A DNA stretch of 64,000 bases from a virus (Duplodnaviria > Heunggongvirae > Uroviricota > Caudoviricetes), in IMG/VR virus record IMGVR_UViG_2880378312_000006, one strand, 5' to 3'. Of the stretch, positions 39,001-42,000 are shown one piece after another. A program made the position numbers. How positions within the stretch are numbered: position 1 is the first letter of the stretch; each line of letters begins with the position of its first letter.

Positions 39001-42000
39001 CTGGCGTTCGAAGAAAAGCATGGTTCCCAGGTTGATTTAATTTTTCGTTTTCTTGATCACGCCTTTGCAACCGGCGTGCTCGGGTAAAAGAGGTTACTGA
39101 TGCGTATAGAGTTTGTTTTGCCTTACCCGCCGACGGTGAACACCTACTGGCGACGTCGTGGCAGCACATATTTTGTATCAAAAGCCGGTGAGCGTTATCG
39201 CCGGGATGTGGCACTTATTGTTCGCCAGCAGCGGCTGAAATTAAACCTGTCCGGAAGGCTGGCGATAAAGATTATTGCAGAGCCACCGGATAAGCGCCGT
39301 CGTGACCTGGACAATATCCTGAAAGCACCACTGGATGCGCTGACGCATGCCGGACTTCTCATAGACGACGAGCAGTTTGATGAAATCAATATTGTGCGCG
39401 GCTAGCTCGTTTCTGGTGGGCGGCTGGGCGTGAAGATTTACAAAATTGAAAGTGAGTGAGCATAAATATGATATACCCGGAAATTACAGGCAAAAGCGGT
39501 GAGCATTTACGCCTGAAAACGCTGGAAAGTGTCTGGATCCAGGGGAAACTGCGTATGTGGGGGCGTTGGTCGTATATTGGCGACGGTAAGACGGGAAATA
39601 TGTTCAACCAATTACTGACCTCTAAAAAGCTGACAAAAACGGCAATTAACGAGGCGCTCCGGAGGATGAAAAAAGCGGGTCTGGACAAACCTGAACTTGA
39701 GGCTTTTTTGCGGGATATGATCAACGGCAATCAAAAAAGCTGGCTGGCACATTGTACCGATTCAGAGGCGTTAATAATCGATAGGGTTATTGGTGAAGTA
39801 CTGGCAGGTTATCCCGGGCTGCTCAATGTTCTGAGTCAGCGTTATGTGGGGCGGGGGATGACTAAGCGCAAAATGGCTGAATTGCTGAATGATGCACATC
39901 CGGAATGGAGTTTAAGAACCTGTGAAAGACGCATTGAGCATTGGCTAAAGGTGGCAGAATTTATTTTGTACAAACCAATGGTTATGGCTTTTGGTATAGA
40001 GAAAAAAGTTATTGCTTTTTGACGTAAAAACTGCTTCAATTCCGGTAAGCTTCGCAAAGCTGTACCGCGAGGCGAATAGCAGACATGGACATTTGAAAGA
40101 GCCCGCTTTTTGCGGGTTTTTTTATGACTGAAAAACGGCACGGGGCGTTAAACGCGCTGGTGGTTGCTAATACCGGTCTTTCAACTTGCTGGCTTTTTCG
40201 ACAAGAGTTATTGGTATGTCACGTTAACCGGAAAAGGGAAAAAGACATGCTAAAACAGCAGGATATGACAGAAACCGCCAGAGTGGTGTTTAATGAATTA
40301 AGCGTTACCGAACCGGCGACAGTCGGGGAGATTGCGCAGAATACTTACCTTTCACGCGAACGCTGCCAGTTAATACTGACCCAGCTGGTTATGGCGGGTC
40401 TGGCAGACTATCAGTGCGGTTGTTACAGACGCATTCAGTCCTGAAGGCTTTTTATTTGTGGTAAATGGGCGGCTGGTGGGGGGGGCGGCACCTGTCAGTC
40501 CTTTGCTTATGTGTTGATGATAATTTACCTTTTGGGGCTATAATTGAGCTAACCAATTGCTAATGAAAGTAAAATTATAATGGCTGTTGTCTGTTCAGTT
40601 ATCATGGTTTGCTCCCCAATTAATATTTTTCTTGAAAAGGATACGTTGTCACTTAAGCCAGGCTCAGTCGTTCTGGCCACCAAATGCATCAGGGAGCTTT
40701 TCCTTATGCATTATGGCAAAGTTAAAATTGTCGATATAAGCGAATCCGTCGTAAGTCAATATCTGGAAAGTCAGCATAAGCTGACGAGGACTCGTCTGAC
40801 TGACATTCCGCTTTACCTGTTGCTGGAACCCAACAATCCTGCGTTGGCTGCGGCTTTAATTACCAGCCAGGGATTTTCCGGAGAGGTCACGGATATGTTT
40901 CTTATGATGGCCTGCCTGTCTCTGTTTGAAACAGATGAACGGATGTCATTGTTTTTAAGTGGATGTTTATCCAGCATAAGTGCCAAAGTCAGGGCGATAA
41001 TTCAGACAGATATATCAGCAAGCTGGACGCTTGGTGCGATTGCTCTACAGTTGCATATGAGTGAGAGTTTGTTAAAGACAAAACTGAAAAATGAAGGGGG
41101 CATGTTCAGTCGCTTGTTGCTGGAAGAGCGGATGCGTGTTGCTGTAAATATGTTATGTTCCCGGTATGGATATGGACAGGCTGTAGCAGAAAAATGTGGT
41201 TATTCAAGCCGGTCCTACTTTATTTCTGTATTTCACCGCTATTATGGCTTCCCGCCAGACAGATATGTATCCAGGCAAGGGCTTGATTATTGATTTTCAT
41301 CTGATTATTATTTTTTGGCTCGGCCCTTTAGCTCAGTGGTGAGAGCGAGCGACTCATAATCGCCAGGTCGCTGGTTCAAATCCAGCAAGGGCCACCATCA
41401 CAAACCGCCATTAGCTTATCAGGAAGAGCAGACGACACCATAACAGGGTTGTTGGTGCGGGGCCGGGTCCCCGATGGCGGTCCATTATCGGTATTCTGCG
41501 TTGTTAGCTCAGCCGGACAGAGCAATTGCCTTCTAAGCAATCGGTCAGTGGTTCGACTCCACTACAACGCGCCACACTTATTTTCCAGGCTCGCTTCGGC
41601 GGGCCTTTTTTGTATCTGCGCCACGCCCGGCGCATACCAACCACAGAGCCTTTCGGGGGTGAGCTTACGGAGTGGTCAGTGTGACTTTCTCTGTGGGCAG
41701 ATCGCTCCCGGGCGTTGGCTCACCCACCCAAAGGAACGTCACGATGTTTGGAATCTTCAAAAAGAAAACCCGCAGAGCGGCAACGGAAATTAAAAAGTTT
41801 GAAAAACGCGATCTGGCACAGGTGGTGATTAACGCCGCATACCTGGTGGCCTGTGCAGATGGTGAATGTGAGGCATCCGAGAAAGCGAAGATCGAACAGG
41901 TACTGCGTAATCAGCCTGCGCTGTCCGCGTTTACGTCAGAAATTAATGCGATTAGCGCAACCATTATCGGTCAGCTGGATACGAACTTTAAAACTGGTCG

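Follow-up and report, generated by a model that had tools for sequence, protein, structure and literature searches.

Assignment to psrB of an AraC/XylS-family regulator gene carried as cargo on an Sp11/CP-933O-type lambdoid prophage

Results and discussion

Organization of the region between the Q-like gene and the tRNA genes

The region described here is part of a 64,000-nt stretch of viral DNA (IMG/VR record IMGVR_UViG_2880378312_000006), which as a whole is referred to below as the window. A Q-like late antiterminator gene is followed by an intrinsic-terminator-like hairpin, a small ORF, an AT-rich segment, the gene of an AraC-type regulator and two tRNA genes (Table 1). Genes identical to the Q-like gene are annotated as encoding a DUF1133 family protein in RefSeq and, in Escherichia coli O157:H7 Sakai, as the phage antiterminator ECs_2193.

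Table 1 Features of the psrB region and of the linked PerC-family gene in the window
Feature	Position (nt)	Strand	Evidence or remark
Q-like late antiterminator gene (DUF1133 family)	39456..40022	+	PHROG 753 'anti-termination protein Q-like', E=5.8e-81
Intrinsic-terminator-like hairpin, AAAGAGCCCGC-UUUUU-GCGGGUUUUUUU	~40094..40124	+	RNA fold; 72 nt past the Q-like stop codon
Small conserved phage ORF, 65 aa	40247..40444	+	PHROG 331, E=3.9e-37
AT-rich psrB upstream region	40481..40579	+	GC 0.30-0.32
psrB, full-length AraC/XylS-family regulator gene	40580..41293	+	Pfam; 100% identity to WP_000301797.1; Z2104 primers
tRNA gene, anticodon CAT (ileZ)	41322..41397	+	tRNA-Met by ARAGORN; tRNA-Ile in RefSeq and Sakai
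tRNA-Arg gene, anticodon TCT (argO)	41498..41574	+	Followed by a terminator-like hairpin, 41587-41606
PerC-family regulator gene (pchB in Sakai Sp11)	48011..48325	+	ORF; collinear with ECs_2182

In lambdoid phages, a short PR' transcript is made between the Q-type gene and the terminator tR'. The hairpin downstream of the Q-like gene, which possesses a 13-bp G+C-rich stem and a U tail, may be analogous to lambda tR' on position only and is called tR'-like below. It was found by direct folding, having been missed by a simple terminator scan, and the fold of nt 40020-40135 had a total energy of -37.6 kcal/mol, with a z-score of -3.45 relative to shuffled sequences. The segment between the Q-like gene and this hairpin coincides with a weak match to the Hfq-binding sRNA isrK at nt 40049-40122 (+), which at 19.8 bits was below the gathering score of 50.

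The first-pass annotation had placed a regulator gene with its own AT-rich upstream region between the Q-like gene and the tRNAs, immediately downstream of a late terminator hairpin. The location and the upstream region were both borne out, and a late hairpin does exist, but about 455 nt containing the 65-aa ORF separate it from the regulator gene. This small ORF carries the label of a TrmB-family regulator in some records and is also present in prophages that possess a DNA methyltransferase gene instead of the AraC gene; it is part of the backbone of the prophage and lies outside the AraC cassette.

Homology to the methyltransferase-carrying prophages ends at nt 40480, and the next long match begins at nt 42660. 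A run of 8 G residues (nt 40478-40485) marks the left edge of the exchangeable psr cassette; in the psrA copy, GGGTGTTAG is found at the place of this run and the 90 bases that follow are nearly identical. The G+C content was 32% for nt 40490-40579, compared with 44% for psrB and 52% for the prophage, and the AT-rich region (nt 40481-40579) travels with psrB and is almost identical upstream of psrA. A sigma-70-like site, ATGATA-16-TATAAT, with 10 of 12 consensus positions was located at nt 40517-40544; since the number of such sites in the upstream region equals that expected from shuffled sequences, it is to be read merely as a consensus match. The psr cassette fills a cargo slot flanked on one side by the late antiterminator module and on the other by the ileZ/argO tRNA genes of an Sp11-type lambdoid prophage.

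Two further observations concern the right-hand part of the region. The 237 codons of psrB include 4 AUA, 4 AGG and 1 AGA (17, 17 and 4 per 1000, respectively), AUA and AGG being commoner than in the sampled phage structural genes, and tRNAs reading AUA and AGA/AGG are encoded 3' of psrB (nt 41322-41574). Farther downstream, the Rfam sRNA family STnc100 was matched strongly at nt 42344-42516 (+), between the DUF3927 ORF and the gene of the NanS-p-type esterase, with 104.7 bits (E=5.6e-23) against a gathering score of 47.

The AraC-type ORF and its product

The ORF at nt 40580..41293 starts with ATG and encodes 237 aa. Within residues 155-230 of the product, Pfam HTH_AraC scored 50 bits (E=2.9e-13) and HTH_18 scored 37.8 bits (E=2.4e-9), the respective cut-offs being 26.6 and 33.6. 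Since both scores exceed the gathering thresholds, the AraC-type DNA-binding domain is regarded as genuine and a chance match is excluded. The trait typical of the AraC/XylS family, a pair of helix-turn-helix motifs within a DNA-binding domain of some 100 aa at the C-terminus, is therefore present by the Pfam matches, and the protein can be divided into an N-terminal domain (residues ~1-130) and a C-terminal double helix-turn-helix domain (~135-232). Among proteins of solved structure, those closest in sequence are GadX (DNA-binding domain; 3mkl, E=2.2e-18) and Rns. An AlphaFold2 model built from a 12-sequence alignment was poor, with a mean pLDDT of 64 and a pTM of 0.46.

The N-terminus can be aligned from residue 1 with those of PatE, GadW, YdeO and AppY, with the motif M-x-x-x-C-S-V in common, and positions 1-230 of the NCBIfam YdeO model cover residues 1-229. 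In the Sakai record, ECs_2191 and ECs_1087 are each annotated as 195 aa starting from Met43, versus 237 aa in RefSeq. Homology reaching to residue 1 supports the 237-aa RefSeq start, by which the Sakai start would be too short.

The dN/dS ratio between psrB and psrA was 0.43 for the whole gene, residues 1-130 giving 0.54 and residues 131-237 giving 0.27. These values indicate purifying selection on both paralogues, looser across the N-terminal domain. A truncated or decaying pseudogene was ruled out by the full-length alignment from residue 1 together with the overall ratio. The 237-aa AraC-type regulator proposed at first reading therefore stands: its helix-turn-helix domain appears in profile searches, and the gene is full length.

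Identity of the gene

The predicted protein was 100% identical to WP_000301797.1, which is encoded at nt 1905274-1905987 of EDL933 (CP008957) in the tandem prophage OI-57, and equally to ECs_2191 of Sakai Sp11 when the latter is read as an ORF extended upstream of its annotated start. For EDL933, the resequenced record CP008957 was used as the reference, in addition to the published Z2104 primers. The identity extends to the DNA: in nt 40020-41620 of the window, no mismatch was found in 1,601 bases with either EDL933 or Sakai, a stretch that runs from the Q-like stop codon and takes in the hairpin, the small ORF, the upstream region, psrB and both tRNA genes. A tblastn search of two stretches over the EDL933 OI-57 region detected no second AraC ORF, the WP_000301797.1 gene being the sole match.

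Primers for Z2104 (psrB) have been published with a 158-bp amplicon at EDL933 nt 1892470-1892627, inside OI-57 (PMC4763077). Both match exactly at nt 40840-40997 of the window, giving a 158-bp product, and neither matched the psrA copy. In two reviews, z2104 on OI-57 is given as the gene of PsrB, whose identity to PsrA is put at 90% (PMC10877973, PMC8565820). The window protein shares 90.7% identity with Sakai ECs_1087 (22 substitutions), which agrees with the published figure for the two paralogues and was counted in favour of PsrB.

The same 90.7% identity, the almost identical upstream regions and the shared slot upstream of ileZ could also be taken to mean that the gene is psrA, the paralogue whose deletion alone raises type III secretion. 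This is very improbable. The protein differs at 22 residues from the PsrA-type allele (Sakai ECs_1087 / EDL933 WP_000261909.1) and at none from the OI-57/Sp11 copy; both Z2104-specific primers match the window; and the downstream flank is ileZ-argO-TerB-DUF3927 as in Sp11, versus ileZ-argN-argO for psrA. The PsrA-type allele resembles psrB in its length of 237 aa, its near-identical upstream region, its slot upstream of ileZ and the Pch regulator aboard the same prophage. It is distinguished by a CPBP protease gene upstream and the presence of argN, and 17 of the 22 substitutions fall in the N-terminal domain. A stronger secretion phenotype on deletion has been reported for PsrA than for PsrB. 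Identity with psrA is accordingly refuted at the level of sequence, unless the names for Z1789 and Z2104 were swapped in the literature.

The location of psrA itself has been given differently. It was put (as z1789) on OI-50 by the reviews (PMC10877973, PMC8565820); tblastn against the current EDL933 and Sakai assemblies detected no AraC ORF on the espK/espN prophage ('OI-50'; EDL933 nt 1630000-1679999; Sakai Sp6). The 90.7% allele (WP_000261909.1 / ECs_1087) lies on an Sp4/CP-933M-type prophage, adjoining pchA, and in a 2026 paper from the laboratory behind the gene names, ECs_1087 on Sakai Sp4 is called psrA (PMC13502914).

A prophage-borne regulator of the PatE, PsrA and PsrB kind had been expected from the first-pass annotation, which left the choice among them undecided. 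The class is borne out and the alignments separate its members, with 100% identity to PsrB, 90.7% to PsrA and 37.4% to PatE. PatE was ruled out at this identity (over 235 aa, WP_000246059.1). On protein and DNA identity, the Z2104 primers, the identity to the paralogue and the low identity to PatE, we assign the gene with high confidence to psrB ('prophage-encoded secretion regulator B'), coding for an AraC/XylS activator of the GadW/YdeO/AppY/PatE branch and forming a cargo cassette in an Sp11/CP-933O-type lambdoid prophage. The gene is thus not new: it has been characterised experimentally, and the genetic context found here is the usual one.

Prophage setting

The DNA of the window is that of E. 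coli O157:H7. Two portions, nt 12000-27000 and 24000-46000, were 100% identical to several cattle isolates, e.g. CP028680. The first ~25000 nt represent the tail end of an Sp9-like prophage that carries nleA (12578..13903, minus strand), together with an ompW 3' remnant. In this prophage, the host-specificity gene J (nt 5676-9148, +) appears to be divided between an ORF at 5676..6851 and another, overlapping it, at 6728..9148, pointing to a frameshift; in strain 7409, J is interrupted by an IS3-family element.

The psrB prophage lies in tandem behind the Sp9-like nleA prophage, starting at its integrase gene (25087..26217). From nt 28186 to 63996, the window is collinear with, and 99.4% identical to, Sakai Sp11 and the second prophage of the EDL933 OI-57 tandem. 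The EDL933/Sakai PsrB locus thus shares with the window both its prophage body (99.4% over 35.8 kb) and its neighbours (TerB, DUF3927, NanS-p-type esterase, pchB), and the window differs from it only in the left end of the prophage and the chromosomal setting. Integrase, excisionase and exonuclease (26508..28952) genes are intact beside the ompW 3' remnant (nt 24900-28950), in contrast to Sakai Sp11 (located at ydfJ) and the second OI-57 prophage of EDL933, in which integrase and exonuclease are truncated. The differing left end probably represents one of the prophage-mediated rearrangements already known in O157.

The psr genes have been described on prophages that also bear a Pch regulator and, for PsrB, effector loci, and the Pch family has been described as activating type III secretion (PMC10877973). 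The window prophage likewise combines a psr gene with a Pch (PerC-family) gene, that listed last in Table 1, the EDL933 counterpart of which is annotated as a PerC family transcriptional regulator. The nleG effector genes at the tail end of Sp11 fall outside the window.

Relationship to other AraC/XylS regulators

PatE (Z0321; OI-8 / CP-933H) is, like PsrB, a prophage-borne AraC-like activator that aligns from residue 1; its reported targets, gadE and one segment of the hdeA promoter, are shared with PsrB. PatE differs in its low identity, its length of 247 aa and its location on a different, degraded prophage outside the slot between the Q-like and tRNA genes.

Pairwise identities were 34% with GadW, 31% with YdeO and 29% with AppY; for GadX, 41% identity was shared in the C-terminal domain only. 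The NCBIfam equivalog models for YdeO (NF007407; 106.1 bits, cut-off 348) and GadX (NF007432; 87.3 bits, cut-off 500) were matched well below their thresholds. On these comparisons, PsrB is placed in the same AraC/XylS branch as GadW, YdeO, AppY and GadX, as an orthologue of none. The four E. coli K-12 proteins possess the C-terminal double helix-turn-helix of PsrB, with M-x-x-x-C-S-V absent in GadX. GadW, GadX and YdeO are chromosomally encoded and AppY is encoded on prophage DLP12 outside the late slot, in contrast to the late-slot position of psrB. All four regulate gadE and the AR2 system, converging on gadE.

Distribution of the psr cassette

The 841-bp psr cassette was detected in 722 of 5,426 complete E. 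coli genomes, with a median of two and a maximum of four copies per genome; in 585 records, the best copy was at least 99% identical. Most hosts were Shiga-toxin-producing strains, namely O157:H7, O121, O111 and their relatives. At the protein level, E. coli also has homologues with 57-93% and with 39% identity. In phage phiSTEC1575-Stx2k (nt 5001-7324), a Psr homologue (91.6% identity) is encoded directly upstream of ileZ-argN-argO and stx2k; this is the slot occupied in the window, with stx at the place where the window has the TerB and DUF3927 genes.

Function and proposed regulation

According to two reviews, PsrB binds two promoters, that of hdeA (-132 to -45) and that of gadE, and raises the expression of GadE, YhiF and AR2 acid-resistance genes, GadE/YhiF in turn repressing LEE type III secretion; when induced, PsrB improves survival at pH 2.5-3.5 and passage through the mouse stomach (PMC10877973, PMC8565820). 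As summarised in one of them, deletion of psrB alone had little effect on secretion, and psrB supplied in trans repressed secretion in a psrA mutant (PMC10877973). From the small effect of the deletion, the contribution of psrB at native expression may be small. In the strain from which the window derives, PsrB would be expected to function as described for enterohaemorrhagic E. coli, on the basis of gene identity and the reviews.

That small effect (PMC10877973), together with the position of psrB within the late transcription unit, with the Q-like gene on one side and the lysis genes on the other, would also suit a gene serving mainly the phage, for example in the lysis-lysogeny decision or late gene expression, with the effects on host acid resistance being side effects of over-expression. 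Such a role is most unlikely. The slot holds exchangeable cargo, a DNA methyltransferase gene occupying it in other prophages, and phiSTEC1575-Stx2k possesses a Psr homologue just upstream of its tRNA genes and stx2; moreover, the nearest chromosomal relatives, GadW, YdeO and AppY, are all regulators of gadE, and direct binding to hdeA and gadE has been reported in the review literature cited above. Almost no weight can be given to another alternative, that of an uncharacterised and separate member of the GadX/GadW/YdeO/PatE group with a different regulon. The diversity of the family (E. coli homologues at 57-93% and 39%) and the sub-threshold NCBIfam matches might point to such a paralogue, but the window copy matches the EDL933 locus on which the studies were made base for base over 1.6 kb.

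For PsrB as a regulator of host genes, two routes of expression can be envisaged. In the lysogen, psrB would be transcribed from its own promoter within the AT-rich upstream region, which is likely since this region stays with the gene and has a near-identical counterpart in front of psrA. After induction of the prophage, antiterminated late transcription could read through into psrB, given that the Q-like gene and the tR'-like hairpin both precede it; in Stx phages, stx is driven by Q-dependent read-through on induction. With integrase, excisionase and exonuclease intact, the prophage could still be excisable or inducible. It is conceivable, if rather doubtful, that in the arrangement associated with cattle O157:H7, induction drives psrB by Q-dependent read-through and so couples prophage induction to GAD acid resistance and to the shut-down of type III secretion.

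Conclusions

The sequence itself yields nothing new on regulation. Its value for annotation lies in showing that the 195-aa Sakai start is probably too short and in providing a psrB prophage with an intact integration module at ompW. A gene whose product bears in RefSeq merely the generic label 'helix-turn-helix domain-containing protein' receives a name, psrB, and a published biology, and a single prophage in the window encodes both a regulator that would dampen the LEE indirectly, PsrB, and one that would activate it, the PchB-like protein.
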